In this document: positions 4,196 to 19,722 of the stretch, in pieces | Position numbering within the stretch: position 1 is the stretch's first letter | How the letters are laid out: each line of letters begins with the position of its first letter | Source of the DNA: a virus | Virus record (IMG/VR): IMGVR_UViG_3300049639_000129 | Span: 1-24,034 of that record | DNA: 24,034 nt | Strand: one strand, 5' to 3' | The notes under the pieces: generated by a model | What the model was told of the DNA's origin: nothing | Databases searched by the model: none | The model's input: the letters and a program-made list of their open reading frames with translations, nothing else | Position numbers and translations under genes: made by a program

Positions 4196-4275
4196 TTTTT
4201 AAGTATGTAGTTTATCCGAATAAATTACATACTCTTTTCTTTTATTGTTTCTTCTGACAGTGTTTAAGTGTTCTT

Positions 4276-4314
4276 ATTTTAGTGTTGTATATAAAGAACA
4301 CTAAAATTTAAATA
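4276..4314 (+). promoter_or_regulatory. Promoter of the transfer operon, with an 11-bp inverted repeat flanking the TATA box
   Basis: ATTTTAGTGTT-gtatataaag-AACACTAAAAT (4276-4307); further AGTGTT copies at 4259 and 4267. Confidence 0.7.
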
Positions 4315-4337: not shown

Positions 4338-4727
4338 ATGAAATTTAAACAAGTTTTTACGGCTGCCTGGTTATCAAGCCTGGCAGGTTTGGCGAGCACT
4401 GCCTCGGCTGCAGTCTCACAGAATGGCACGTCGGTCTATATCCAGCCCGACGCAGTGAACGGGTATAATATGCTGACACAGTTCAGTTTATTTAGTCATT
4501 TAATGAACTTCTTAGACCTGCTTAACTATCTGGTTTATATCGGGGCTATTGCCGTCGCACTTTATTGTACCCTGCTCGTTATCCTCGGCATCGTTTCCGG
4601 GAAAAGAGACCCGAAGGCAATAAGGGACGAGCTGTCAGCTCAGGCAGGACTCGTTAAGGTCGTTAAAATTATAGTATATATGAAAGTTGCCTTGATGATT
4701 ATCGACTTTGTCTTCTATATAACATGA
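4338..4727 (+). CDS. VirB2/TrbC-like pilin candidate
   Basis: 129 aa; signal-like N-terminus then two hydrophobic helices separated by a short charged loop; first gene of the operon ending in VirB4. Confidence 0.6.
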   Translation: MKFKQVFTAAWLSSLAGLASTASAAVSQNGTSVYIQPDAVNGYNMLTQFSLFSHLMNFLDLLNYLVYIGAIAVALYCTLLVILGIVSGKRDPKAIRDELSAQAGLVKVVKIIVYMKVALMIIDFVFYIT

Positions 4728-6601: not shown

Positions 6602-9309
6602 GTATCCCAATAATGTATAAGATCCTTCCAAAGCCCATAAAGAGGAGCTGGGCAGAATTCAAATGTTTTGTAAACGTTAAAAACTGGTTTAAACAGTTTG
6701 AGGAGATCGACAGGCGGCTCGTCCTGTCCCTTTCTCCTACTGTTTTTAAGCCAAAATGGGGAGGGCGGTATCTATACGCTGACGGCTGCTATATGCAGAT
6801 TATAAGCGTAGGAGATCCAAGTCCAGTTAATCCTAATAGGCAGGGAATACCCCCTAGAAAGGATCTTAGGCTTATAGATGACCTGCTAGACATCCCAACT
6901 GGGGAAAATGCCTGCATAGGAATTACGCAGACTGCTATACCCCTGCCTCCGAGAGACGAGATCGATGCCTTAGAGAACGCCAGGCGCGAAAATATCCTGG
7001 CGGCTGCAATGCAGGAAGCAGAAAACGAGGGCGTCTTTAAAAATATTCACGATAAGATTATCGACTATATAGCTGAGGGTATAAACGAGTATAACCGGGC
7101 AGTATTCGAGGGCCGTATGAGAATGTTTGAATTCTCGCTCCTGGTTGCGGTTAAGGGGAAGACTACAAAAGACGTAGACGACCTTATGAGCCTTATTATC
7201 GCTCTCCTGGACGGTAAGAGGGTAATACATGAAATCATAGAGTATGGACAGACTGACGCATATTATATGATGATGCCGACGCCGTTTATTAAGGAACGGC
7301 TTCTCTCGACCACAACCGGCGAGATGGTCGCCAGGACCAGCCCATTACGGAATAAAAATCCGAGGCTAGCGAAGTCGGGCCACTGGCTAGGGCTTAACGA
7401 GGATACAAATAACCCAATTTTCCTAAATTTCAAAGACGGAAGCCTGGTTTCTGGTCATGCTATAGTAATAGGAAAAAGTGGATCTGGAAAGTCGACTGAG
7501 CTTCTTAAGGACAATAAAAGAGTTCTTGAGATGGGAGACGAGGCTTTCCACATTGTCCCGAAGGCTGACGAGGATACTAACCATATCAACGTATGTAAAG
7601 AACTTGGCGGGCAGCTTATTAAGATCGGGCATATGCAGGCGGGGGCACAGGATGCAGACACTAACCCTAACATGTTCCAGGTCTTCTTTGATCCGGAAAG
7701 AATGGATAACTCATTAGGATCTTACCAGCTTGCGTTTTCTAAACATATGTCGCTTTTGCCGGATGTTATCGGGCTCCTAATTGGTGACAGTTTTTCAGAC
7801 CCTCAGAAAAATTGGGTATATAGCTCGCTGGTAGAGTTATACCACAGGCGAGGAGTGACAGACAACAACGGAAACGTCATTAACCTGGATAAATGGGAAG
7901 ATGGCAACTTCTGGCCTAATTTCGATGATTGGCGGGCTCTCATATATGAGTGGATGCAAGACGATGAGCACAAAGCCCCTAATGTGAATTCTGTCCTTGC
8001 TGCCATCTATAACAATACAACCATGATAACCCGGAAAGGGCCTTACGGTTTCCTTGTAAATAACAACATCCTAAAGCTTAGGAATAGATTTACAATGGTT
8101 GACCTTTCCGAGCTCATAGACTCGCCTAATATTCAGGACGCGTTGATCCTGCTTATTACAGGGATCATTAACACAAAGATCCAATGTGTACCGAAAGGGC
8201 AGGTTAAGAAACATATTTTTATTACCTTGGACGAAGGCGCAAACCTGGTTAAGATCCCACGGATGCGAATCGTAATTGAACGGATGTTCAGAGAGCTTCG
8301 CAGTTTTGGAGGTCATCTTAAAATAGTATTCCAGGACCTAGCAGGCGTGCCCCCGGAGACGATACTTATGATGAAAACAAATTCCGACTACGTGCTCCTG
8401 CTTTCTAACATGTCAGCCTATAACATAAAGCCGTTAGTTAAAGAATTTAACCTCACTAGAAACGACATAAGGAGACTTAAAGCGAAAGGAAAAGGAAAGG
8501 GCCTCCTGATCGTCGGAGACACGCGTATAAACTATTTCAATTCACTTACTGAGGATGATGAGAGGGTAATCTTTGGGAAATCGTTGAAAGTTGATTCTGA
8601 GAATACAGAGCAGTCGGCTGGATTCTGCCTGGATAAAAGGGTACAGTGGGTAAAGGATAAACATAAAGTCTTTTTAAAAGACTGGCTTACCGGCATACCT
8701 TTAAACCAGGTTATACGGGTACCCGGCTACGAAATGGAGCAATTCGACCATCCATTCAAGGCAGGAAAAAAGACGGTTTATGTTGAAGTCGGGCTCGAAA
8801 AAGAGGACGGGCACATCAAAAACCAGACGAAGGAACATTACCTCTTTGCCTGCGCTCTCGCAGGCGAAGGCTCATTAATGGGAGCAGTCGCAACTACTGA
8901 CGACTATGGGACACATCAAGAAGTAGACGTTAAGCTAGTCTTCAACCAGGGGACTGATAACGAAACTGTAATCGGGATTGAAGTTGAAATCGAAAGATCG
9001 CATACGGCAAAGGAACTTCAGGAAAAACGAGACAGGTTATTAATGAGAAAACGCGATGGGAAGCCTGAATTTGACCATATAATTTTCACGGGAACACATG
9101 ATTATTATAAAACGACACTCCGCGACGCCGTTGGGCCCGATTATTCAGCCCCCAGAGGCAAAAGGCTAAGGGAAAAAATACTCGCTTGCGTAAAAACAGG
9201 AAAGAGGGCAGCCGATGACGAAAAATTAAAGGGCGGAGAAAACCAGGATTCAGGAAATCCGCCTGATTTAAACGTGTATTCCTGCGAATCGACCGCTCAG
9301 GAGGCTTAA
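6598..9309 (+). CDS. virB4: VirB4-like conjugation ATPase with extra C-terminal domain
   Basis: Walker A GKSGSGKS (7471-7494), Walker B ITLDEG (8221-8238), R-S-F-G-G arginine-finger region, GxG motif (KGKGKGLL), long VirB4-type N-terminal domain; 903 aa. Confidence 0.85.
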   Translation: MSIPIMYKILPKPIKRSWAEFKCFVNVKNWFKQFEEIDRRLVLSLSPTVFKPKWGGRYLYADGCYMQIISVGDPSPVNPNRQGIPPRKDLRLIDDLLDIPTGENACIGITQTAIPLPPRDEIDALENARRENILAAAMQEAENEGVFKNIHDKIIDYIAEGINEYNRAVFEGRMRMFEFSLLVAVKGKTTKDVDDLMSLIIALLDGKRVIHEIIEYGQTDAYYMMMPTPFIKERLLSTTTGEMVARTSPLRNKNPRLAKSGHWLGLNEDTNNPIFLNFKDGSLVSGHAIVIGKSGSGKSTELLKDNKRVLEMGDEAFHIVPKADEDTNHINVCKELGGQLIKIGHMQAGAQDADTNPNMFQVFFDPERMDNSLGSYQLAFSKHMSLLPDVIGLLIGDSFSDPQKNWVYSSLVELYHRRGVTDNNGNVINLDKWEDGNFWPNFDDWRALIYEWMQDDEHKAPNVNSVLAAIYNNTTMITRKGPYGFLVNNNILKLRNRFTMVDLSELIDSPNIQDALILLITGIINTKIQCVPKGQVKKHIFITLDEGANLVKIPRMRIVIERMFRELRSFGGHLKIVFQDLAGVPPETILMMKTNSDYVLLLSNMSAYNIKPLVKEFNLTRNDIRRLKAKGKGKGLLIVGDTRINYFNSLTEDDERVIFGKSLKVDSENTEQSAGFCLDKRVQWVKDKHKVFLKDWLTGIPLNQVIRVPGYEMEQFDHPFKAGKKTVYVEVGLEKEDGHIKNQTKEHYLFACALAGEGSLMGAVATTDDYGTHQEVDVKLVFNQGTDNETVIGIEVEIERSHTAKELQEKRDRLLMRKRDGKPEFDHIIFTGTHDYYKTTLRDAVGPDYSAPRGKRLREKILACVKTGKRAADDEKLKGGENQDSGNPPDLNVYSCESTAQEA

Positions 9310-9322
9310 CTCCTAGCGGCAC

Positions 9323-9433
9323 TGTCCATAATAGGACATACGACTCGCTATAGCTCCGGACTATGATAAGTCCGGCATACGCTCGTCTATAGTCCATTAA
9401 TGTCCAGTCCCTCCGGGCCTGAGCCCGGAGGGA
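9323..9433. other. GC-rich cluster of three hairpins (candidate oriT, terminator or structured RNA)
   Basis: TGTCC/GGACA (9323-9338), CCGGACT/AGTCCGG (9356-9375), TCCCTCCGGGC/GCCCGGAGGGA (9408-9433). Confidence 0.55.
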
Positions 9434-9521
9434 ACGGAGAAAAACCGGTGCACGAAACAAGTAAAAAACTTATGAACAAGTAACACAAAAGTAACAGGTT
9501 TGTAATATTGGAGCTTCCGAG

Positions 9522-9920
9522 ATGAATAACTTTTTAAATGTCTCCTGCGATTGTATTTTAATGACTAGAGAAGAGTCAAATGAAATGAAAAAGGAGAAAG
9601 TCGGTAAGGGGATGTATCACGCTATTGACCTGGATGTGTGGGATGATCCGTTCCCGGTTCTCCAGATAGGCAATAAAGGGCGTGTACATCTGCCTCTTGG
9701 ATATCTCGACTCAGATATCTGGGTTTTTATTTCTGAATCTGCAGACATAAGGAAAAAATGTAATCTTATATTATTACCCAAAACAGGACCGACAAAGTGG
9801 GAAGAGGTCTTTCAATCGAGAGGGAAAAACGCAGGCGATCTTTTAAACATCTTCGGAAACGGCGATATTTGCGTAAAATATAAAAAAGGTATGAATGTTA
9901 AAGTATTCGTGAGGAAATAA
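9522..9920 (+). CDS. Hypothetical protein, possibly tandem AbrB/DUF2080-like swapped-hairpin DNA-binding domains
   Basis: Two similar segments (LQIGNKGRVHLPLGYLDSDIWVFI; LNIFGNGDICVKYKKGMNVKVFV). The true start may be a downstream ATG (MTR or MKK). Confidence 0.55.
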   Translation: MNNFLNVSCDCILMTREESNEMKKEKVGKGMYHAIDLDVWDDPFPVLQIGNKGRVHLPLGYLDSDIWVFISESADIRKKCNLILLPKTGPTKWEEVFQSRGKNAGDLLNIFGNGDICVKYKKGMNVKVFVRK

Positions 9921-9924
9921 TCTT

Positions 9925-10344
9925 ATGTTACCTGAATTAAACCCTATTACTGTTATACTGGTTATACTCGTCGCTGTCGGTGGATTAGTCGGCGGTTACG
10001 CAGCGCATGACTTCCAGCTCCAGGAGATCAAGGAGAACAGCTTTGAGGATCAGATCAGAGCAAACGTTACCCAGGTAGATAACGAGATCCAGGCGTTAAA
10101 GCTGGCTTATAATAATTCAAGTGTCGGATATTTCCGGGCAGACTGCCAAAACTCGCAGCAGTATATAACGGAGAAATGGCAGACAGCGAGCCGTGATTCT
10201 GGAATGAGTGCAGAGGACCGGAAGCTTAACGCGGAATACAGGGATTTTTTAGTCGAAGCCAGCAGCATTATAGACGTTTACCTGGCGAGAAGTAACCCGG
10301 ACTTCACAGAGTATGAAACCCACAGAGACAACTTATTAAAGTGA
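9925..10344 (+). CDS. Single-pass membrane-anchored hypothetical protein (139 aa)
   Basis: N-terminal transmembrane segment (ITVILVILVAVGGLVGGYAA) followed by a helical soluble domain. Confidence 0.75.
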   Translation: MLPELNPITVILVILVAVGGLVGGYAAHDFQLQEIKENSFEDQIRANVTQVDNEIQALKLAYNNSSVGYFRADCQNSQQYITEKWQTASRDSGMSAEDRKLNAEYRDFLVEASSIIDVYLARSNPDFTEYETHRDNLLK

Positions 10345-10398
10345 ATTCAGAAAAGCAGGAAACGACGGGAGAAATATTTATTGAGTGAGGAGTGAAAT

Positions 10399-10608
10399 AT
10401 GAAATACAGAAAAACCGCATTAATCGAAGCTGAACAGTATAGAAGAGGACTTGAAGATGGAATAGATGAGAAAGGACCTTATCTTAATACTCTCGAAGGA
10501 AAACTGTATATCCCTCCAAATGGCTGGATAGCTACCGGGGCGATGGGCGAGAGATGGGCAATTCAGGATGATATATTTAGATTGACTTATGAGGCTGTCG
10601 AGGAATGA
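10399..10608 (+). CDS. Small phage-type protein (TLEG...GE...IF..TYE family), function unknown
   Basis: Motif pattern MKYRK..IEAEQ / NTLEG / GW..TGAMGERW / DIFRLTYE is typical of a widespread phage family; GAGGAGTG SD. Confidence 0.7.
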   Translation: MKYRKTALIEAEQYRRGLEDGIDEKGPYLNTLEGKLYIPPNGWIATGAMGERWAIQDDIFRLTYEAVEE

Positions 10609-10662
10609 ATTCTTTGGTCCTCTCGTTTATTATTTCCTTTATATCATTAACGAAACAGGAGG

Positions 10663-10695
10663 CTTAAAGCTATGGTATTAGACCATAGCTTTAAG
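10663..10695. promoter_or_regulatory. Perfect 14-bp-arm inverted repeat
   Basis: CTTAAAGCTATGGT-attag-ACCATAGCTTTAAG. Confidence 0.7.
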
Positions 10696-10705
10696 GTGGT
10701 CCAGG

Positions 10706-11137
10706 ATGCCAGCCTCCCCGAGGGTGGAAATGTCGAATTATGATACTCATAAATTCCTCGGGCTCCTCCCCCTGCCTCTCGTCGTGGTCTTTCTATGGAT
10801 GGCATACGACGGAGGCTTCGCCGAGATCGAGCCTTTAATTTTATTCCTGGTCTGGTGGCTGCTGCACACTCTCGTTATAACTCCAGATATAGACACGCTT
10901 TCGATACCCTCTAAGCGACTGGGACCACTAGGCTGGGTAATAAGGAAACTGTCAAAGCATAGGAAAACCTGGCACTCTCCGCTATTTTGGGCCGTATATT
11001 TTGGCCTGAGTTACAATTATCTCGGCTGGTGGACCCTGGGTGGTGTCTTCCCTATATACTGTCATATTTACGTGGATATAATAACAAGCTGGCTAAACAG
11101 ACGCAAAATAATAAAACTATTAAAGAAGTTATTTTAA
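10706..11137 (+). CDS. DUF2227/YdjM-like metal-binding membrane protein (putative hydrolase)
   Basis: Motifs TH, TPDIDT.S and HRK.WHS with transmembrane segments; the start may be 10730. Confidence 0.7.
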   Translation: MPASPRVEMSNYDTHKFLGLLPLPLVVVFLWMAYDGGFAEIEPLILFLVWWLLHTLVITPDIDTLSIPSKRLGPLGWVIRKLSKHRKTWHSPLFWAVYFGLSYNYLGWWTLGGVFPIYCHIYVDIITSWLNRRKIIKLLKKLF

Positions 11138-11168
11138 AACGGTCTATTGCAACTGAAAAAACAAACGC

Positions 11169-11245
11169 CTACTACTACTACTACTACTTACTAAGATAGA
11201 ATATAGTATAGTATAGATAGTGTAGGTACATACACGTACATACAC
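11169..11245. repeat. Simple-repeat cluster upstream of the RHH gene
   Basis: (CTA)6 at 11169-11186, (TATAG)3 at 11202-11216, (GTACATACAC)2 at 11226-11245. Confidence 0.85.
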
Positions 11246-11268
11246 TCCCCAATCAATACGGTGATATC

Positions 11269-11682
11269 ATGCCTCTCGTAGCAACCACAGTGAAATTAGA
11301 ATCTGACAAATTAGAACTTATTAAAATGAAGCAGGTGAACGTTTCCCAACTCTGCCGAGATGCTGTAGACTCTTATCTTAAATTAAATAGCACAGATAAA
11401 GCCGTTATAAAGAGCCAGATCGCAGACTTACAACAGCAAAGGAATTCTATTGACCTACAAATAAAACTCCTCCTGAAGCAGTTAGAAACATGTGAGAACG
11501 AAGACGTACTCAGCACTCACAGGAACGCAATGTTTGAAAAGTGGAAAACTAACATGGCGTTTATGGTCAATAAAAAGACTATTGATTGGGGGACTGTTTC
11601 GGATGTCTTCAAGTTCTCAACAAGGGCAGAATGTGAGGCGTATATTATAAATAGGTTAAAAGAAGAAGGATTAATTACATAA
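11269..11682 (+). CDS. Ribbon-helix-helix transcriptional regulator with coiled coil
   Basis: N-terminal strand-helix-helix pattern (ATTVKLESDKLELIK..VNVSQLCRDAVDSYL), heptad segment, helical C-terminal domain; GGTGA SD. Confidence 0.75.
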   Translation: MPLVATTVKLESDKLELIKMKQVNVSQLCRDAVDSYLKLNSTDKAVIKSQIADLQQQRNSIDLQIKLLLKQLETCENEDVLSTHRNAMFEKWKTNMAFMVNKKTIDWGTVSDVFKFSTRAECEAYIINRLKEEGLIT

Positions 11683-11702
11683 CACTTCCAGAGGGGTATC
11701 GA

Positions 11703-11837
11703 TTGACAGGCGACAAATCCGAGGTGGAGAGCCAGCTTGCAGAAATTGAAAAGGAAATAGAGTGTTTAGATGCTCAAAGGCGTCTACTCCTTTCCATTCT
11801 TGAAACTATTAATAACGAAGTCCCGACAGGGGCTTAA
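11703..11837 (+). CDS. 44-aa coiled-coil mini-protein paralogous to the RHH protein's coiled coil
   Basis: TTG start after GAGGGG; MTGDKSEVESQLAEIEKEIECLDAQRRLLLSILETINNEVPTGA; 14/35 ungapped identities to the upstream gene. Below the ORF-track length cutoff. Confidence 0.7.
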   Translation: MTGDKSEVESQLAEIEKEIECLDAQRRLLLSILETINNEVPTGA

Positions 11838-11932
11838 TCACTCTTTTATCAAAATCGTTATCAGTTGATGGTGTGTACACGTACACACATTTAATTTAGT
11901 CTATTTTTTTGTTTCCTTATTTTTCCTTTTTA

Positions 11933-12010
11933 GTTTGGTTGTGCAAATATAAGCATAACCAAACGTAAGTTATATATAGTAATAGGTTGTATAGTATATT
12001 GTACAACCTA
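11933..12010 (+). promoter_or_regulatory. Array element copy 1: hairpin + BRE/TATA + 28-bp palindrome
   Basis: GTTTGGTTGTGC/GCATAACCAAAC stem, then CGTAAG-TTATATATA, then TAGGTTGTATAGTATATTGTACAACCTA (11983-12010). Confidence 0.9.
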
Positions 12011-12049
12011 ATAGTAAAACGGATAATAAAAGAACTAATAAAAGGAGAC

Positions 12050-12103
12050 AACCAAACATAAGTTTTATATACTATTAGGTTGTATAGAATATTGTACAAC
12101 CTA
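12050..12103 (+). promoter_or_regulatory. Array element copy 2 (no upstream hairpin arm)
   Basis: AACCAAACATAAG-TTTTATATA; palindrome at 12076-12103 with one spacer substitution. Confidence 0.9.
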
Positions 12104-12141
12104 AGAGAAAACAATAACAAAGTAATACGGAGGAAAAGAAA

Positions 12142-12537
12142 ATGATACTCAATTTGACCCAACACGCAGCGACCCCAGAACAGAAGGCTCAACTCGTAGT
12201 AGAGCCTAGAATGTGCAAAGCAAAAATACAGAAACTTCTTACTTTCGATGAGATCCCTTCAAAAGAAGAAATCGAAGCAAGAGCCTCAGAGCTGGCGGAA
12301 ATCGCAGTGTCTGAGGCAAATCATTACGCGGGTGAGACTGACAATAGAATCTGGATCACCCGCGTAATGATAGGTGGTGCTCCGTTTTTCATGGGAGCAC
12401 TCGAGAAAGCACTCCGGGAATGCGGGTTTACCCCCGTATACGCGTTTTCGAAAAGAGAGAGCGAGGAAATCCCACAGCCGGATGGGTCAGTCAGGAAGAT
12501 CGCAGTATTCCGGCACATTGGATTCGTGGAGGTCTGA
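12142..12537 (+). CDS. Csx20/Csx15-like small Rossmann/CARF-like protein, candidate ring nuclease (copy A1)
   Basis: N-terminal LNLTQH..TPEQ and C-terminal MIGG..G.TPVYA.SKRES.E..QPDG..RK..VFRH.GF resemble the recalled Csx20/Csx15 consensus; GGAGG SD. The ORF is certain, the function is inferred. Confidence 0.6.
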   Translation: MILNLTQHAATPEQKAQLVVEPRMCKAKIQKLLTFDEIPSKEEIEARASELAEIAVSEANHYAGETDNRIWITRVMIGGAPFFMGALEKALRECGFTPVYAFSKRESEEIPQPDGSVRKIAVFRHIGFVEV

Positions 12538-12540
12538 AAA

Positions 12541-12975
12541 ATGACCTCCAGACTCAACGCACTGGAGAACAGTTTTCCTCCAGAGATATTGGATAACACA
12601 TTCAAAAAAATCGTTAACAAAGCCTTGTACGCAAGGCTTCGTGAAATGGAAATCGAGGGTGCATCTGATAGACAGATGTACTCTGAAGTATTCAAATATA
12701 TTAGCCCAAAAGAAATCCCAGCGTTTCCGGGGGGGCTGAAATATGTCAAACGTGGAGCATTTCGCTTCCGTTTCGTCGCGAATCAGAAATACTATCGGAG
12801 CCCGTGCTTCGTAGTAGAGCCAGTTCCAGATATAGATCAAGCGCTCCGAGAGCTTCACCTCAGATATAATGATCTCCCATATGAGGAGTATAAAAAAGCC
12901 AGACTTCAAGAAATTGAAGGGCTTCCATACGACAAAAAATACTTGCGCCCACCTCGGACAAAGTGGACGTTGTGA
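12541..12975 (+). CDS. Hypothetical protein (copy B1, 144 aa)
   Basis: Paralog of 14795-15271; starts 3 nt after the A1 stop. Confidence 0.85.
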   Translation: MTSRLNALENSFPPEILDNTFKKIVNKALYARLREMEIEGASDRQMYSEVFKYISPKEIPAFPGGLKYVKRGAFRFRFVANQKYYRSPCFVVEPVPDIDQALRELHLRYNDLPYEEYKKARLQEIEGLPYDKKYLRPPRTKWTL

Positions 12976-13017
12976 ATCGCGCACAAGGAGAGCTTTAATA
13001 GGGGCTTTTAGCCTCTC

Positions 13018-13104
13018 AAAACTTACGTTTAGTTATAAGAAATATATCATAACCAAACGTAAGTTTTATACAGTAATAGGTTGTATAGTATATTGTACAA
13101 CCTA
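13018..13104 (+). promoter_or_regulatory. Array element copy 3
   Basis: 19-bp stem (13018-13036 / 13049-13067, one mismatch), TATA, palindrome at 13077-13104. Confidence 0.9.
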
Positions 13105-13149
13105 TTAGAAAAACAGGAACGCCAAAGCTAATAAAAGGAGAGAACCAAA

Positions 13150-14064
13150 ATGTTAAAAATAGGAGAAAAGGATACTAAATATGGAGTCTTTGAATTCTTC
13201 CTCAAAGAGGAAGATCAGGTAAAACTTGTTTGTGTCCACGGCGGCAAGACCGCTGAAACCACTTTCTGCGGTCAAATCCGGGGGCACAACGCAATGAATA
13301 TTGAAAAACTCGACGTGAAAGAAAACGGAAAAACGATGATGTTCATAGGGCTTCCCGATGAAGTTTACAATGCATTTCAAAACGCGAAATCAAAATTCGC
13401 GCTGAAAAATATCCACCTAACATATGCAGGACGGAGCGCAGAAACAGGGATAAAATGGTATTCATTGAGTGCAGTAGTTCCCCGGGATGTGTGGAGAAAG
13501 AACGCGAAATACTTCGAGAAATTCGAAGAAGACGAAGAGGACGCAATTGACGGAGAGCTTTACGGCTGGCTCACAGCACAGCCCGAAGCCGTTGAGAAAA
13601 ATTTGAATGTCAGGGAAGAGCTTACCCTGGCATATAGGGGAGAACAGGCAAAGAAGAGAAGAGAAGAGAAAGAGAAAAAAGCTAAGGAGCTACAGGAAAA
13701 AATTGACGACATCAAAAAAGCCTTTGAGAATGCAGAATACCCAGATCCAAAGAAGGAAGCTCCTGGAGAAGCTGCTCAGTTTCGACCAGGATACGAAAAA
13801 ATGCGGGTTGATGGGGAAGAAATTCAGCACCCCATAAATCCAGAAAACGCATGGGGTGGCGGCGAGTGGTGGGTAATTCAGCCAGAATGGATCTGGCACA
13901 TTAGAAATAACGGCTTCGACGGGGATGACTGGGGCCGGAACAACGTGCAGACAGGAGGAGCCGGCGCGATTGGCGTAAGAGTTCCATATTCTGAAGAACT
14001 TGCCGCACAAATCAGGGAGCTTAAAAAAATGACAGCGCGAAAACCGAACACTCCTAAAAAATGA
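13150..14064 (+). CDS. Hypothetical protein C (304 aa), acidic/charged, Trp/Gly-rich C-terminal domain
   Basis: Long ORF with AAAGGAG SD; C-terminal GGGEWWVI..WIW..RNNG.DGDDW..NNV.TGGAGAIG segment. Confidence 0.85.
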   Translation: MLKIGEKDTKYGVFEFFLKEEDQVKLVCVHGGKTAETTFCGQIRGHNAMNIEKLDVKENGKTMMFIGLPDEVYNAFQNAKSKFALKNIHLTYAGRSAETGIKWYSLSAVVPRDVWRKNAKYFEKFEEDEEDAIDGELYGWLTAQPEAVEKNLNVREELTLAYRGEQAKKRREEKEKKAKELQEKIDDIKKAFENAEYPDPKKEAPGEAAQFRPGYEKMRVDGEEIQHPINPENAWGGGEWWVIQPEWIWHIRNNGFDGDDWGRNNVQTGGAGAIGVRVPYSEELAAQIRELKKMTARKPNTPKK

Positions 14065-14110
14065 CCAAATCCCGGCAGTTAAGTTAATTTCACTTTCCTT
14101 ATTTTTCCTT

Positions 14111-14192
14111 TTACGTTTGGTTATATTAATTTTAACTTAACCTAACGTAAGTTATATATAGTAATAGGTTGTATAGTATATTGTACAACCTA
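14111..14192 (+). promoter_or_regulatory. Array element copy 4
   Basis: 13-bp stem (14111-14123 / 14138-14150, one mismatch), TATA, palindrome at 14165-14192. Confidence 0.9.
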
Positions 14193-14238
14193 TTAGAAAA
14201 AACGGGAACACCAAAGCTAATAAAAGGAGAGAACCAAA

Positions 14239-14634
14239 ATGATATTAAACCTTACACAACATGTCGTGACCCCAGAACAAAAAGCTCAACTGGTTGTTGA
14301 GCCTAGAATGACGAAAGCAAAAATACAGAAACTCCTCACATTTGAGGAGATCCCCACGAGGGAAGAAATTGAAGCAAGAGCGAAAGAGCTCGCAAGAATA
14401 GCCGCGTCCGAAGCGTCGATGTACGCGGGTGACACCGATAACATGATTTGGATCACCCGTGTAATGATCGGTGGCGCTCCGTATCTCATGGGGGCACTTG
14501 AGAAAGCACTCCGAGAATGCGGGTTCACTCCCGTATATGCTTTTTCGAAAAGAGAGAGCATAGACCAGCCACAACCTGACGGATCAGTCAGGAAGGTCGC
14601 AGTATTCCGACATCTCGGGTTTGTGGAGGTCTGA
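14239..14634 (+). CDS. Csx20/Csx15-like protein, candidate ring nuclease (copy A2)
   Basis: 111/131 aa identical to 12142-12537 by manual comparison, with the same motifs. Confidence 0.6.
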   Translation: MILNLTQHVVTPEQKAQLVVEPRMTKAKIQKLLTFEEIPTREEIEARAKELARIAASEASMYAGDTDNMIWITRVMIGGAPYLMGALEKALRECGFTPVYAFSKRESIDQPQPDGSVRKVAVFRHLGFVEV

Positions 14635-14672
14635 GCAGTTGTTAATTTCTCTTTCCTTTTTTTTCCTTTTTA

Positions 14673-14750
14673 GTTTGGTTATACCAATTATAATATAACC
14701 AAACGTAAGTTTTATATAGTAATAGGTTGTATAGTATATTGTACAACCTA
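14673..14750 (+). promoter_or_regulatory. Array element copy 5
   Basis: Perfect 11-bp stem GTTTGGTTATA/TATAACCAAAC, TATA, palindrome at 14723-14750. Confidence 0.9.
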
Positions 14751-14794
14751 AGAGAAAACGATAATAAAAAGAACTAATAAAAGGAGAAACCAAA

Positions 14795-15271
14795 ATGATG
14801 CAAAGAACTACACAGAAGGAAATAGGAACAGAAGTGACCTCAAGACTCAACGCACTGGAGAACAGTTTTCCTCCAGAGATATTGGATAACACATTCAAAA
14901 AAATAGTAAATAAAGCCTTGTACGCAAGGCTTCGTGAAATGGAAATCGAGGGTGCATCTGATAGACAGATGTACTCTGAAGTATTCAAATATGTTGACCC
15001 TTCCGAAATCCCAGCGTTTCCGGGGGGGCTGAATTATGTCAAACGTGGGACATACCGCTTCAGGTTCGTCGCGAATCGGAAGTACTACAGGAGCCCGTGC
15101 TTCATAGTGGAGCCAGTTCCAGATGTAGATCAAGCGCTCCGAGAGATTAATATTAGATACAATTATGATCTCACATCCGAGGAGTGTAAAAAAGCCAAAC
15201 TTCAAGAAATTGAAGGGCTTCCATACGACAAAAAATACTTGCGCCCACCTCGGACAAAGTGGACGCTGTGA
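14795..15271 (+). CDS. Hypothetical protein (copy B2, 158 aa)
   Basis: Paralog of B1 with 13 extra N-terminal residues; AAAGGAG SD. Confidence 0.85.
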   Translation: MMQRTTQKEIGTEVTSRLNALENSFPPEILDNTFKKIVNKALYARLREMEIEGASDRQMYSEVFKYVDPSEIPAFPGGLNYVKRGTYRFRFVANRKYYRSPCFIVEPVPDVDQALREINIRYNYDLTSEECKKAKLQEIEGLPYDKKYLRPPRTKWTL

Positions 15272-15327
15272 ATCGCGCACACGATGAAACTCTTAAACAA
15301 ACCGAATGAAAGCTCAGAGGAAATAAA

Positions 15328-15789
15328 ATGACTGTTTATAAACTTGACAAGGGTGCTCACTCCGTATACACCCTGCATTACCATTTAATTCTCGTCGTGA
15401 AAGACAGGAGAAAAGCCCTGTATAACGAGGTAATCAGGGAAAGGTTAAAAGAAATTATATATAAAATGGCTGAAAAATGGCAAAGAGAAAAAAATACAGA
15501 AATGGCTATTGAAATCGTAGCTCAAGAGCCGGGGGAAGATCACCATTATATTCTCTTCAAGGCAACCCCTCGCACCTCTCTTACAAAAGTGATCAACAGC
15601 ATCAAAGGAGCCTCCGCGAGAGTCCTTAGAAATGAATTTCCTGAAACTAAGAAATTCTTATGGGGGGATGCTTTCTGGGCACCTTCATACTTCTTGGCTA
15701 CGACAGGACAAGTTTCTCTTGATGTCCTAAAAGCCTATGTCGAAAGTCAGGAAAGCAAAAGAGAAAAGATCTTTGGAAAATTAAAGTAA
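15328..15789 (+). mobile_element. tnpA: IS200/IS605-family Y1 transposase with degenerate HUH motif; no tnpB
   Basis: KGAHSVY.LHYHL, SIKG.SAR, FW.PSYF..T.G and catalytic Y..SQ present; HUH reads H-H-Y (15541-15549) and KYRR reads KDRR. Confidence 0.9.
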
Positions 15790-15804
15790 AGGAGGATTAA
15801 AACA

Positions 15805-16077
15805 ATGGATTCAATAGAAAAACTACTAAAAACCGGAAGACCTGCCCCACAGCCAGAACACAACTTTCAGATTCTATTTGAAGGTTCAGAACCTAAATTA
15901 ACAGATTATAAAGTGCTTGCCTCAAAGTTCGGTGGAAAATGCGTAAAACTCGGTGGAGGCGGCTCAACATTCGACCCATGTATAGAATTCATGAAAGTAA
16001 CTGACGATGAAAAGGACAAGTTGACCGCAGAAGCAATAAAAATTATTGAGAAAAGAGAAGAGGTTTCAAACCTCTAA
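15805..16077 (+). CDS. Hypothetical protein (90 aa)
   Basis: GGAGG SD; operonic spacing. Confidence 0.75.
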   Translation: MDSIEKLLKTGRPAPQPEHNFQILFEGSEPKLTDYKVLASKFGGKCVKLGGGGSTFDPCIEFMKVTDDEKDKLTAEAIKIIEKREEVSNL

Positions 16078-16092
16078 AATTTTTGAGGAAAA

Positions 16093-16260
16093 ATGTCAAC
16101 TTACATGAAAAGGATAAACGAAACATTTACAGAAGAAGAATTTGAGGAATTATCAAATTATAATGACATTGGCCGAAACAAAAGAAGAGGAGTGATAAAA
16201 CATGATACGAAACGCAGAAAATACCTTAATGTCAGTAGAACACGAAAACGAACTCCCTGA
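16093..16260 (+). pseudogene. Possible truncated small DNA-binding gene remnant (55 codons)
   Basis: GAGG SD; MKRINETFTEEEFEEL looks like a strand-helix start, then the sequence turns into a basic tail overlapping the next gene out of frame. Confidence 0.3.
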
Positions 16261-16507
16261 AAACATCAGAAAATATTATGATGTAATCAACGAATCGGAC
16301 CGCATAGTCTCAGCCTTTGAATATGGGAAATTTCACGTCTGTATGAAAAACGAAGCCGGAGAACTCGGACTTTTCCAAAAGAATCTCATCAAAGAAAGCG
16401 GGGACATGTATCTTCCATCTTTTGAAAACGCGCCTCTGTTTATCAGGAAGCCTGGGAAGATTGTGGTCATTGCGCCTTGTGAAGTTAAGGGGGTTGGTAA
16501 TGTCTGA
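16202..16507 (+). CDS. Hypothetical protein (101 aa)
   Basis: GAGGAGTGA SD; overlaps the start of the next gene. Confidence 0.75.
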   Translation: MIRNAENTLMSVEHENELPENIRKYYDVINESDRIVSAFEYGKFHVCMKNEAGELGLFQKNLIKESGDMYLPSFENAPLFIRKPGKIVVIAPCEVKGVGNV

Positions 16508-16883
16508 AATCGAAATCCTCAACATGCGTAATACTCATCTAGTCGCGGACCTCTGCTTCAGGATCGACAGAAAAACGAAATGGGGTAATCCCTATAAAAT
16601 GCGCTCAGAACGTGAACGGATGGATGTTATTAAGAAATACACTTACTATCTTTTAGATAGTAAGTTACTCGATGATATTCACGAACTTGAAGGTAAATGG
16701 CTGGCATGTTGGTGCCATCCTAAACCTTGTCATGGGGATGTCCTAAAGTACCTCGCTGAACATCCTGAACTAGTCGGGATGTATCGAGGCGGGGCGATTT
16801 CGAGGGATGACGTAATACAAAGGATCTGGCAGGCTAATGGATGGAAGGGGGAGCAGGTAGGACAGCAGATGAAGTTATTTTAA
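16500..16883 (+). CDS. DUF4326-family protein
   Basis: Motifs IDRKTKWGNPY and LEGKWLACWCHPKPCHGDVL. The start is reassigned from 16422 to ATG 16500 (MSEIEIL), which follows a G-rich SD. Confidence 0.85.
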   Translation: MSEIEILNMRNTHLVADLCFRIDRKTKWGNPYKMRSERERMDVIKKYTYYLLDSKLLDDIHELEGKWLACWCHPKPCHGDVLKYLAEHPELVGMYRGGAISRDDVIQRIWQANGWKGEQVGQQMKLF

Positions 16884-17126
16884 GGAGCAGCCATGAAGAT
16901 TATGAAATTATAAACGACGCGATAAACAAAGGAGAGTTATCAAGATAACTGCTTTCTGTAATCCTCTATAATCTCTTTTTTCTAAGTACCGAATGTAAAT
17001 CTATTAACTTTTTATTTTGGCTCAATACAGAGCCTCACATTAAGTCGGTTTTTCAGGCATTCAACGTCTTTTCAAAAAGGCGTTTTTAATTTTCCTTTAT
17101 TTATATACTCTTCTTATTTTTCATAC

Positions 17127-18140
17127 ATGCCACAAAATATCGGCGATCCTCCTCAACATTTCATAACTGAACCATTACGTTCTTTTGCTCCTAAAAAACT
17201 CGAAAATGGCGATCTCCGCATGGCAATAGCGAAAGCAGGTCAGAAAGCATATTCTATGCGGGGAGAAGAGGCCACACTAACGAAAGAATTTTTATCAAAA
17301 GACTTTTCCACATGGGATGAAGGTCTTGTAAGTATCAACCATGAAAACAATCACGAGTGGGTCAAAGCTACTCTTTACGATCCAGAATATGACCCAGAAA
17401 ACGAATTAGTCATTTGCTCTTTTTCAGGCTTACCTGAATGGGTTGTGAGCCTCATCTATTCCGAAGATTACAGGGGTCTTTCTCAAGAGTGTATCCCTGT
17501 GAAATTCGCTAAAAATTCAATGAATGTTGTAAGAGGGTTTGGGACTGGTGTAACTATTGTTACAGCACCTTACGAGCCTGCGGCTAATCAGGGCATGGGT
17601 GTAGGAATCAGGCCCGAACTTTCCGCTATTCTTGCTTCAAAATATCCAACTCAAATAGAGGATACTATGTCAGAAACCAAAGGAGGCGGTACCCCCGCCA
17701 TATCAGTGGAGACATACGAGAGTGTTGTCTCCGAAAAAGCACAGCTCGTAAGCCGTGTTTCGGCTTTAGAATCTGAAAAAACAAAACTGGAGACTGAACT
17801 TGCTTCCACAAGAAAAGAGTTTGAATCCTATAAAGCTGGAGAAGCTGAGAGGACTAAACTTGCCTACTCCGAAGGAAAAGCGGACGGACGGGCTGAAATC
17901 ATTGCTGAAACCGAAAGAAGTACCGCTATAGAAGAGTTTAAACAGACTCATAGTAAGGAGTTTGTTGAATCTTTCCTCTCTACTAATCCAAGCATTGAAC
18001 AGATAAAGATTCTGACTGCAGGTAAAAAAGTGGATCTTTCAAAGGGTCCAGGCACATCTCAGAGTTATCAGCCTGAAGATGACGGTGAGTCTTACGAATC
18101 CATAAACCGGCGGTTCAATGAATTGCTTGGGAGGACGTAA
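17127..18140 (+). CDS. Prohead protease / scaffolding protein
   Basis: N-terminal protease-like motifs (W..GLVSINH; GLSQE; GVTIV..P..PAA), C-terminal acidic coiled coil; first gene of the capsid operon; TTTATATA box at about 17099. Confidence 0.65.
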   Translation: MPQNIGDPPQHFITEPLRSFAPKKLENGDLRMAIAKAGQKAYSMRGEEATLTKEFLSKDFSTWDEGLVSINHENNHEWVKATLYDPEYDPENELVICSFSGLPEWVVSLIYSEDYRGLSQECIPVKFAKNSMNVVRGFGTGVTIVTAPYEPAANQGMGVGIRPELSAILASKYPTQIEDTMSETKGGGTPAISVETYESVVSEKAQLVSRVSALESEKTKLETELASTRKEFESYKAGEAERTKLAYSEGKADGRAEIIAETERSTAIEEFKQTHSKEFVESFLSTNPSIEQIKILTAGKKVDLSKGPGTSQSYQPEDDGESYESINRRFNELLGRT

Positions 18141-18142
18141 GC

Positions 18143-18745
18143 ATGGCAACTAACTCAATATCGGGTGACTATGGCTTTGTAACTCAAATCCCATGTATCC
18201 TTAAGGAAGGGGATATTACTGTCAATAGCTCGGCATACGGTCCTTTCGGCAAAATGACAGTTTGCACATTCGCCTCTGAAATTTCTAAGGGCGACGTGGT
18301 AGCACTCTCAACAGACTCTGCAAACACAGCAGACGCAACAGAAAACAATATTGTAGTTACCGCCCTTGCAAACAATGTAGATCTTGCAATAGGCAGAATC
18401 ATAGATGAGCCCAAGTGGGTAAGACAGCCAACCGCAAACCAGTCCACATGGGCTGATATGCTTGCAGCCGGGTATTACAGAATTGCAACCGTTGAGCTGT
18501 TTATCCCGATGAGTATTTTCAAAGCTACCCTTGTATGTGCAAATGCTTCAGCCATTACCCCCGGAACCACTGGAAACCTTGACATCGATGCAAGCGCAAG
18601 CCTGGAACTTCACGGTCTTTCAGTTGTAGATGTTGATACAGGTGGATCATCTGACATGATACCTCTAACATACGCAGCTAAGTCGGATAGCGCAACTGTT
18701 TCTGTTCTCGTTGGATTCAAAGGATTTGGAACGGTGACAACTTAA
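18143..18745 (+). CDS. Capsid decoration/cement protein candidate
   Basis: Located between protease/scaffold and major capsid gene (lambda gpD position); small, beta-rich, Ala/Thr/Gly-rich. Confidence 0.55.
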   Translation: MATNSISGDYGFVTQIPCILKEGDITVNSSAYGPFGKMTVCTFASEISKGDVVALSTDSANTADATENNIVVTALANNVDLAIGRIIDEPKWVRQPTANQSTWADMLAAGYYRIATVELFIPMSIFKATLVCANASAITPGTTGNLDIDASASLELHGLSVVDVDTGGSSDMIPLTYAAKSDSATVSVLVGFKGFGTVTT

Positions 18746-18759
18746 GGGAGGGATGAAAA

Positions 18760-19722
18760 ATGTCTGTAACAGCACCAAATGAAGAATTTTTGACTAAGCG
18801 GTTCCTTATCCCGAAAATGTACGAGATAATGAACCCTCTGCTTGCCTGGACTGACATATTCCCACAGGTTCGGGCTACTGCTCCTGTAGTCGCATATAAG
18901 CAGGAAATCACAAGCGATTCTGGAGATACTAAGAAGGAAAGACCTAAACTGATGACTACATCAGGCCAGTGGACTTATGTGGAGATCTCGCAGTTCACGA
19001 TGAAAGCTGCAAACCTGAACAAGCGCGGTTTTGCGATCAAAATCGACCAGGACGCTCTAGATTATGTAGAGGGCGTTGACGAAATCCAGAGAGCCCTACG
19101 GAAGACTGGCTATTGGATTGCCGAAGATTACAATACAAGGATATCCACTGAAATTGCCAACAGTGGAACGGATCTCGCAGGGGAATGGAATCCAGCTGCC
19201 GAATGGTCCGATGCAAACGCCGCTCCGATTTCAGACCTGGAAGACCTCGAAGATGCTTTCATTCGGGAAGGATACCCGTACAGGCTCACGGATGTATTCA
19301 TCCATAAAGACAATTTCAAAGAGCTAAAAAAATACCTTACATCCCTTGATATCGACCAGTATAAACACGAGAAGCTCTACGGTACTCCGAACAACGGAAA
19401 CCGCGACACTCTGGAAATTCCAGTCGTGGGAGCTACAGTTCACCGGCTTCTCTCAGGAATTTCGGAAGGGTCTATTATTGCAATTGACCGCAATAACCCA
19501 GGCATTACAATTTTCTACAACCAGAGCCCCAGATATTCTGCGATGAGTGGAACTTATGAAACCATGCAGAACGGTCAGAAGATCAGCAAAAGCCTGTCTT
19601 ATGGGTTCAACATGAACAAATATTTCGACAACGAGACCCACCAGACTATCATTCAGATGTGGTATGACAACGTACCTGTCACTATTGAACCGTATGCAAT
19701 AGCAATAGATACAGGCATTTAA
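18760..19722 (+). CDS. Major capsid protein, HK97-fold candidate
   Basis: 320 aa; KRGFAIKIDQDAL followed by a long spine helix (EIQRALRKTGYWIAEDYNTRI), W.D..A.PI.DL motif, terminal V..P.AI; GGGAGG SD. Confidence 0.75.
   Translation: MSVTAPNEEFLTKRFLIPKMYEIMNPLLAWTDIFPQVRATAPVVAYKQEITSDSGDTKKERPKLMTTSGQWTYVEISQFTMKAANLNKRGFAIKIDQDALDYVEGVDEIQRALRKTGYWIAEDYNTRISTEIANSGTDLAGEWNPAAEWSDANAAPISDLEDLEDAFIREGYPYRLTDVFIHKDNFKELKKYLTSLDIDQYKHEKLYGTPNNGNRDTLEIPVVGATVHRLLSGISEGSIIAIDRNNPGITIFYNQSPRYSAMSGTYETMQNGQKISKSLSYGFNMNKYFDNETHQTIIQMWYDNVPVTIEPYAIAIDTGI

Follow-up and report, generated by a model that had tools for sequence, protein, structure and literature searches.

Structure of the module array

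We analyzed a 24,034 bp stretch of viral DNA (IMG/VR record IMGVR_UViG_3300049639_000129, positions 1 to 24,034), referred to here as the window; it is the complete IMG/VR record and is rated 34% complete. Between 11912 and 15271 it holds an array of five copies of a promoter-like module, each built around a 28 bp palindrome. The five modules serve only three gene families, A/A', B/B' and C. The array is laid out as follows, with BRE for the B recognition element, SD for the Shine-Dalgarno sequence and ORF for open reading frame.

11912–12049, + strand: module 1, with T tract, upstream inverted repeat, BRE/TATA, palindrome (11983–12010) and leader; it has no ORF and runs into module 2
12050–12141, + strand: module 2, with BRE/TATA, palindrome (12076–12103, one mismatch) and a hybrid leader that closes with the SD belonging to A
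12142–12537, + strand: gene A (P0001, 131 aa), Csx20/MJ1673-like, candidate cyclic tetra-adenylate (cA4) ring nuclease
12541–12975, + strand: gene B (P0002, 144 aa), an orphan family; it starts 3 nt after the stop codon of A and has no module of its own
13005–13149, + strand: module 3, with upstream inverted repeat (13018–13066), TATA, palindrome (13077–13104), leader and SD
13150–14064, + strand: gene C (P0003, 304 aa), with a pleckstrin homology (PH)-like N-terminal domain, a long helix and a conserved glycine-rich C-terminal domain
14075–14238, + strand: module 4, with T tract, upstream inverted repeat, TATA, palindrome (14165–14192), leader and SD
14239–14634, + strand: gene A' (P0004, 131 aa), a second Csx20/MJ1673-like gene, probably an old paralog or an allele of A
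14640–14794, + strand: module 5, with T tract, upstream inverted repeat, TATA, palindrome (14723–14750), leader and SD
14795–15271, + strand: gene B' (P0005, 158 aa), which is B plus a 14-residue N-terminal extension belonging to the module

The palindrome, TAGGTTGTATAGTATATTGTACAACCTA, is present exactly at 11983, 13077, 14165 and 14723 and with one central mismatch at 12076, always on the + strand, so that all five directly oriented copies described in an earlier sequence-only reading of this DNA were recovered. It is confined to 11983–14750 of the window, and 100 shuffles gave an expectation of 0 matches. Its 8-nt half-site occurs 10 times in the window against 0.67 expected, each time inside one of the five palindromes.

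The repeat extends beyond the palindrome. Repeat families of 72–145 nt span the AACCAAACGTAAG box, the TATA element, the palindrome and the leader, and the conserved module measures approximately 100–165 nt. Its full order is an oligo-T tract, an upstream inverted repeat, a BRE/TATA-like decamer, the palindrome, an A-rich leader of approximately 45 nt, AGGAG and, 7–9 nt further on, the ATG. The arms of the upstream inverted repeat are conserved and its 8–12-nt spacer is variable; the right arm is the AACCAAACGTAAG box. Exactly 3 nt separate the TATA-like decamer from the start of the palindrome in 5/5 window copies and in 29 copies from relatives. These repeat families and this anatomy confirmed the repeated terminator-promoter-palindrome-leader unit that the sequence-only reading had proposed, as well as its observation that copy 2 is without terminator and hairpin: the T tract and upstream inverted repeat stand ahead of copies 1, 3, 4 and 5, and copy 2 does without them because it begins where the leader of copy 1 ends.

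The join between copies 1 and 2 falls in a 9-nt word, ATAACCAAA. The module has this word twice, at its 5' end, within the right arm of the upstream inverted repeat, and again immediately ahead of the ATG. The 3' part of the module 2 leader resembles the leader of A in contig L011. The tandem module-module-A arrangement was also found in contigs L021 and L032, and it therefore looks like an inherited double promoter and not a one-off empty cassette.

Both inverted repeats of the module fold as stable hairpins (−11 to −15 kcal/mol; palindrome −12.4 kcal/mol, z −3.6), and the leader is unstructured (−0.2 kcal/mol). In four copies the palindrome is identical at 28/28 positions, against differences at 59% of synonymous sites between A and A'. 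Conservation of the module goes well beyond that of synonymous sites in the genes that it heads, which implies either constraint or homogenization. The distance from TATA to the transcription start is usually 23–27 nt in archaea, and we infer from it a start site within the right arm of the palindrome.

Genes behind the module in related contigs

We found the exact palindrome in 5 viral contigs and in 24 from metagenomes, most of them out of bioreactor, fermentation and other metagenome assemblies. A single arm variant was seen, in L021, and it is not compensated. When the downstream genes were cataloged across the related viral and metagenomic contigs, 29 distinct module copies were found directly ahead of at least nine unrelated gene families, so the module does not always precede the same fixed genes. 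The families are A, B', C, a 108-aa, a 185–193-aa and a 74-aa family, an acidic 72–75-aa family, a 256-aa zinc-ribbon protein and a 419-aa protein. The module occurs one to five times per locus, and the most variable slot is the one between the module and an IS200-like Y1 transposase-family gene (see below).

Genes A and A' resemble Csx20 and MJ1673

Both A and A' matched the NCBIfam model CAS_Csx20 (NF040559), with E-values of 1.7e-9 and 1.4e-8 respectively, residues 3–129 aligning with model positions 2–122/124. PF27247 (MJ1673) is recorded on 118/120 of the homologs of A among the matches listed. Rhodothermus phage RM378 codes for a full-length homolog of A (p002, 44% identity), and A also aligns with a csx20 remnant at the end of Pasteurella phage Pm86; conserved blocks in A and the RM378 and Pm86 homologs are an N-terminal LNLTQH, GGAP and FSKR. 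No match to A was found among the sequences of the PDB. Csx20 is a demonstrated cA4 ring nuclease that has been found in four phage genomes (PMC12409355), and the small protein MJ1673 has been linked to type III-A loci (PMC3973734). Type III systems are found in Methanosarcina species, and Methanosarcina mazei has an active cA4 ring nuclease (PMC7694759, PMC7371418). By their homology to Csx20, A and A' are candidate anti-type III CRISPR ring nucleases; they most likely degrade cA4 and would then resemble the anti-CRISPR (Acr) protein AcrIII-1 in effect.

The two proteins share 85% identity (synonymous divergence, dS, 1.18; ratio of non-synonymous to synonymous divergence, dN/dS, 0.10), and the genes are old copies under purifying selection. 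A' is closer to its homolog in contig L010 (92%) than to A (85%). In the same way B', which shares 88% protein identity with B (dS 0.22), is closer to the B protein of the related virus contig G001 (94%) than to that of the window (88%). As A' is nearer to L010 and B' nearer to G001, the second copies look like alleles imported by recombination between related viruses and not like recent duplications.

Genes B, B' and C

Gene B is coupled to A and occupies the position expected of an anti-CRISPR-associated (aca) gene. The B family has 37 close relatives, and an exhaustive profile search yielded 8 representatives among 1.84 billion proteins, all from its own narrow family. Residues 32–64 of B gave a sub-threshold match to the recognition helix of the HxlR/YtcD winged-helix proteins (E 0.08–0.44). 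The AlphaFold2 (AF2) model of B was unusable, with a predicted local distance difference test (pLDDT) score of 45. In L007, L009 and L010 the module is followed by an unrelated 74-aa gene that begins with the same MMQRT... N-terminus as B'; B' and the 74-aa protein share their first approximately 14 codons, and the repeated unit can therefore extend into the coding region.

Gene C has 137 homologs, with an invariant glycine-rich C-terminal motif (NNGxDGDxW...TGGAGAxGxR), and its AF2 model is confident (pLDDT 88). Comparison of this model with the PDB (Foldseek, VIA wide), BFVD and the Protein Atlas gave no convincing relative; the best hit had a Z score of 5.5 and fell on the PH-like N-terminal domain. 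Searches of the Protein Atlas with B and C returned no usable matches, and Pfam, PHROGs and NCBIfam gave nothing significant for B, C, the cargo genes designated X and Y, or the 74-aa, 72-aa, 256-aa and 419-aa genes. Relatives of C include short forms without the PH-like N-terminal domain, and some distant ones have a zinc ribbon in its place. The last 11 codons of C (window 14029–14064) correspond to the beginning of a gene for a basic zinc-ribbon protein of 79 aa, which in relatives lies behind C (L008 5432–5671, L010 8015–8254); in the window the remainder of that gene is gone, with module 4 in its place.

Candidate regulators

One further gene lies just upstream of the array:

11269–11682, + strand: predicted ribbon-helix-helix (RHH) plus coiled-coil protein (P0306), candidate regulator

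P0306 has a weak match to CcdA, an RHH antitoxin (E 0.026). A BLASTP comparison with the 71-aa RHH ORF of Pm86 (Aca14, beside the csx20 remnant) gave no alignment at E ≤ 100. Homologs of P0306 were found in five module-bearing contigs and in none of the available sequence of G001, L010, L020, L021, L025 and L034. The sequence-only reading had put this protein forward for testing as the one that binds the palindrome. That role lost ground: the gene is absent from several module-bearing contigs, among them the near-complete G001, which has the palindrome, and it has a different flanking repeat of its own. As it does not consistently co-occur with the palindrome, we rejected the RHH protein as the default dedicated repressor.

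The flanking repeat is a 14-nt direct repeat that brackets the RHH gene (starts 11231 and 11876; regions 11178–11247 and 11871–11889) and is unlike the 28 bp dyad; it may be the RHH protein's own operator. Upstream of the RHH gene there are also a (TAC)n run and ATAGT-type repeats.

Gene B appears to be at least as good a repressor candidate as the RHH gene, because it stands directly after a candidate acr gene and, as B', is preceded by an operator copy of its own; its DNA-binding signal is below significance. The candidates for the putative repressor are B/B', the RHH protein and a host factor.

Coverage by RNA-library contigs

Contigs from RNA libraries of three studies cover A–B, A', B' and downstream genes. 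Among them is a contig spanning module 2, A and the beginning of B, and contigs from two studies start at 12019 and 12027. These contigs break at the repeats, as in the DNA run, carry-over of DNA is possible and depth cannot rank the genes; they show presence in RNA libraries only, not timing or start sites, and lend no support to the immediate-early expression that the sequence-only reading had proposed.

The Y1 gene behind the array

Downstream of the last module and its cargo lies a transposase-family gene:

15328–15789, + strand: IS200-like Y1 (HUH) transposase-family gene (PF01797, E 1.8e-34, full profile)

The gene follows the last-module cargo here and in at least 10 related contigs, in the latter within a few nucleotides. 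It is intact, without TnpB, and sits at one fixed position in many relatives with approximately 91% protein identity, like its neighbors; it looks like a domesticated or fixed HUH enzyme of the virus. In L020 there is a second Y1 copy beside a TnpB-like gene. The Y1 gene is absent from the available sequence of G001, L010 and L007, all of which have the palindrome. No half-site was found around 15328–15789, and the palindromes do not flank the Y1 gene.

Integron-type cassettes were also considered. Integrons are defined by promoterless cassettes, a common promoter and an integrase; each unit of the array carries its own promoter-like module, and no integrase family was found among the scanned ORFs of the window, which is a fragment. 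The array does not fit this definition.

The virus group and its host

The closest guide to the virus is G001, a near-complete relative of 54,099 bp with direct terminal repeats, which shares 86–96% protein identity with the left half of the window. Its complete MCM helicase, terminase, portal and tape measure genes mark G001 as a tailed archaeal virus and the window as a fragment of one. In the phage collection, the window's major capsid protein had relatives only among Methanobacteriales viruses. The array shows no enrichment of sigma-70-type sites (13 found against 8.8 ± 3.0 expected). One homolog of A is on a contig labeled as a Methanosarcina thermophila metagenome-assembled genome (MAG). 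A search with the exact palindrome in one genome per prokaryote species gave no match, and hence no provirus or host copy in that way, and a search with the major capsid protein against genome contigs confirmed no host.

A bacterial host, suggested by the sigma-70-bearing contig L011, was judged unlikely given the MCM helicase of G001. L011 (FZPS01000083.1, 893 kb) is a bacterial-looking contig with a sigma-70 gene and a GC content of 0.5–0.6. At 8898–11782 it contains a low-GC mosaic piece of approximately 3 kb, its DNA 80–92% identical to parts of the window, with what is left of a module, a fusion of the N-terminus of A to B, A, a Y1 stub and the start of the capsid operon. This piece adjoins prophage-type genes (YopX, HNH and DnaB), and could be an assembly chimera or a between-domain transfer.

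Relative to conserved flanks, the whole accessory block (C ... A, B ... DUF4326) has opposite orientations in G001 (12847–19135) and the window (9925–17127). By this comparison the block appears to mark a hypervariable, invertible region between a VirB4-like operon and the capsid operon. In L021 a 411-aa ORF just upstream of the array (11116–12351, − strand) resembles, by eye, an Orc1/Cdc6-type AAA+ initiator. Elsewhere in the window an unrelated 52-nt AT-rich repeat (2241–2292 and 4263–4314, 83% identical) precedes a beta-helix gene (2309) and an operon with its start at 4338, and resembles a further class of shared promoter.

A proposed model for the module and its alternatives

We consider it moderately probable that the repeat is a portable archaeal expression module with an operator, driving an accessory and partly anti-defense block. 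The oligo-T tract would terminate the transcript of the preceding gene. The right arm of the upstream inverted repeat would overlap the BRE, followed by TATA and then by the dyad, which would cover the expected start site. The leader, being unstructured, would favor translation, and it carries an SD at constant spacing from the ATG. A repressor that binds DNA as a dimer could occupy the palindrome and prevent initiation at every copy at once, in the manner of Aca proteins. Homologous recombination would have spread the module through the accessory region in a group of tailed viruses of methanogens, where it heads different small genes, and A/A' would degrade the cA4 made by type III CRISPR systems of the host. 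On this analysis the block is best read as a probable early accessory and counter-defense region, with the ring-nuclease homolog as its best-identified cargo.

Several observations weigh against this model. G001 has a single module heading a whole operon (74-aa gene, 79-aa gene, A, B and DUF4326 gene), and multiplication of the module is therefore not essential. One RNA-library contig includes the whole of palindrome 4, so that these contigs do not fix the start site. A and A' score 33–38 bits against NF040559, below the equivalog cut-off of 70 bits that the Methanocaldococcus jannaschii control exceeded, and they would be a diverged viral clade and not Csx20 equivalogs. B, C and the other cargo genes appear to have no link to defense. 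The sequence-only reading had regarded all of the cargo as anti-defense; this finds support by homology for A and A', which are of Csx20/MJ1673 type, and does not extend to B, C and the other families, which have no recognizable relatives. Finally, the host genus Methanosarcina is pointed to directly only by the one MAG-labeled contig and is not proven.

The copies might simply share a strong promoter and leader, with no viral repressor, and be kept alike by gene conversion; the dyad would then be an initiator, a 5' end or a host-factor site, and the genes general early or host-takeover genes with a Csx20-like passenger. Mosaic copies and A/A' joints in other samples point to frequent recombination, no regulator co-occurs with the palindrome in all relatives, and neither B nor C nor the other cargo families have defense-related similarity. 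In addition, the intergenic repeats of halovirus HF2 are plain promoters (PMC8707807). However, a 28 bp dyad that lies exactly on the expected start site and stays invariant in 29 copies with varying flanks is a typical operator layout, and the best-identified cargo is a CRISPR ring-nuclease homolog; we regard a plain shared promoter as unlikely. The palindrome could also act at the RNA level in place of a DNA operator, as a hairpin at the 5' end or between cistrons with control over stability, processing or read-through termination. Its folding energy would suit this, as would the RNA-library contig containing palindrome 4, but contigs of this kind do not reveal the ends of transcripts, and the libraries may contain DNA. 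A transcript from the module's own promoter would hold the right arm only, because TATA is just 3 nt upstream of the palindrome, and the arm variant in L021 is uncompensated, leaving an RNA role as the least probable of the explanations considered.

Two further possibilities involve recombination. The palindromes could be substrates of the Y1 HUH enzyme, either as repetitive extragenic palindromic (REP) elements of the type mobilized by REP-associated tyrosine transposases (RAYT) or in mobilizing cassettes, with hairpins nicked to move genes and promoter activity secondary. An intact Y1 gene directly after the last-module cargo in at least 10 contigs, with that slot the most diverse, would fit, as would the stable folding of both inverted repeats and the tendency of contigs with the Y1 gene toward more module copies. 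Against this, the palindrome is in fixed register with TATA, SD and ATG and was never seen outside the locus or flanking Y1, the three contigs named above have it without a Y1 gene in their available sequence, and Y1 is inherited at the same place with the same protein identity as its neighbors. We consider a Y1 substrate very unlikely. Also improbable is that the module is a unit of gene capture, in which promoter-gene units bounded by ATAACCAAA are gained, lost, stacked and swapped between co-infecting viruses, possibly with help from Y1. The array would then be an integron-like, self-expressing arsenal, and every captured gene a new archaeal counter-defense protein.

Comparison with known systems

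Control of an Acr/Aca-like or promoter-repeat kind is already known. The sequence-only reading had taken the array for its strongest candidate for an undescribed system, a suggestion overtaken by published examples of the same logic (PMC11065993, PMC13551039, PMC8707807); in this virus group none is described in the literature searched. In the literature that we found, Acr proteins of archaeal viruses are described only from Sulfolobales viruses (PMC11065993).

The module can serve as a search handle, with nine orphan gene families behind the control region that also precedes a CRISPR ring-nuclease homolog. The analysis yields a useful catalog of cargo and three orphan families worth testing, and it points to a regulator-operator pair that could be tested in genetically tractable hosts of the Methanosarcina type. 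If A/A' are active, virus-borne Csx20 ring nucleases would extend from a few bacteriophages to archaeal viruses. To our knowledge, the tailed archaeal viruses of anaerobic digesters are almost uncharacterized.

As in the IS200/IS605 and REP/RAYT systems, a Y1 HUH gene stands beside repeated imperfect palindromes. Unlike in those systems, the palindromes do not flank Y1, they also occur without it, and they are locked in a promoter-leader frame. Halovirus HF2 is likewise a tailed archaeal virus whose intergenic repeats carry AT-rich promoter motifs and are conserved in sequence and position among relatives; at 29 and 58 bp, its repeats are dispersed through the genome, and the abstract of its report describes neither an operator dyad nor variable cargo for them (PMC8707807).

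With AcrIII-1, the viral Crn2-type ring nuclease, A and A' would share the proposed degradation of cA4 and the blunting of type III CRISPR signaling. AcrIII-1 belongs to an unrelated protein family (DUF1874), and the activity of A and A' is suggested by Csx20 homology only. Homologs of csx20 in phages stand behind inverted-repeat promoters controlled by the RHH protein Aca14 (PMC13551039). The window resembles these csx20-aca14 operons in its virus-borne Csx20 homolog, its inverted-repeat promoter and the small gene directly downstream. It differs in that the gene after A is B and not an RHH gene; the RHH gene is separate, lies upstream and has no detectable similarity to Aca14. The promoter is also of archaeal type, and the operator sequence is unrelated.

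The nearest parallel comes from SIRV2 and other Sulfolobales viruses, in which early and anti-defense genes share a conserved regulatory sequence and a putative winged helix-turn-helix protein, Aca8, has been described (Bhoobalan-Chitty et al., 2024; PMC11065993). In both cases an archaeal virus carries small, mostly single, unannotated and unrelated genes, each behind a near-identical BRE/TATA sequence. Known acr genes are among those of the Sulfolobales viruses, for which a small DNA-binding repressor has been proposed (PMC11065993), and repression is likewise proposed here. Unlike the Sulfolobales case, the virus is tailed, its host would be a methanogen, and it has no Aca8 homolog. The module is also longer, with a terminator, a second inverted repeat, the 28 bp dyad, a leader and sometimes the first 14 codons, and it is present one to five times within one locus instead of at the genome termini.

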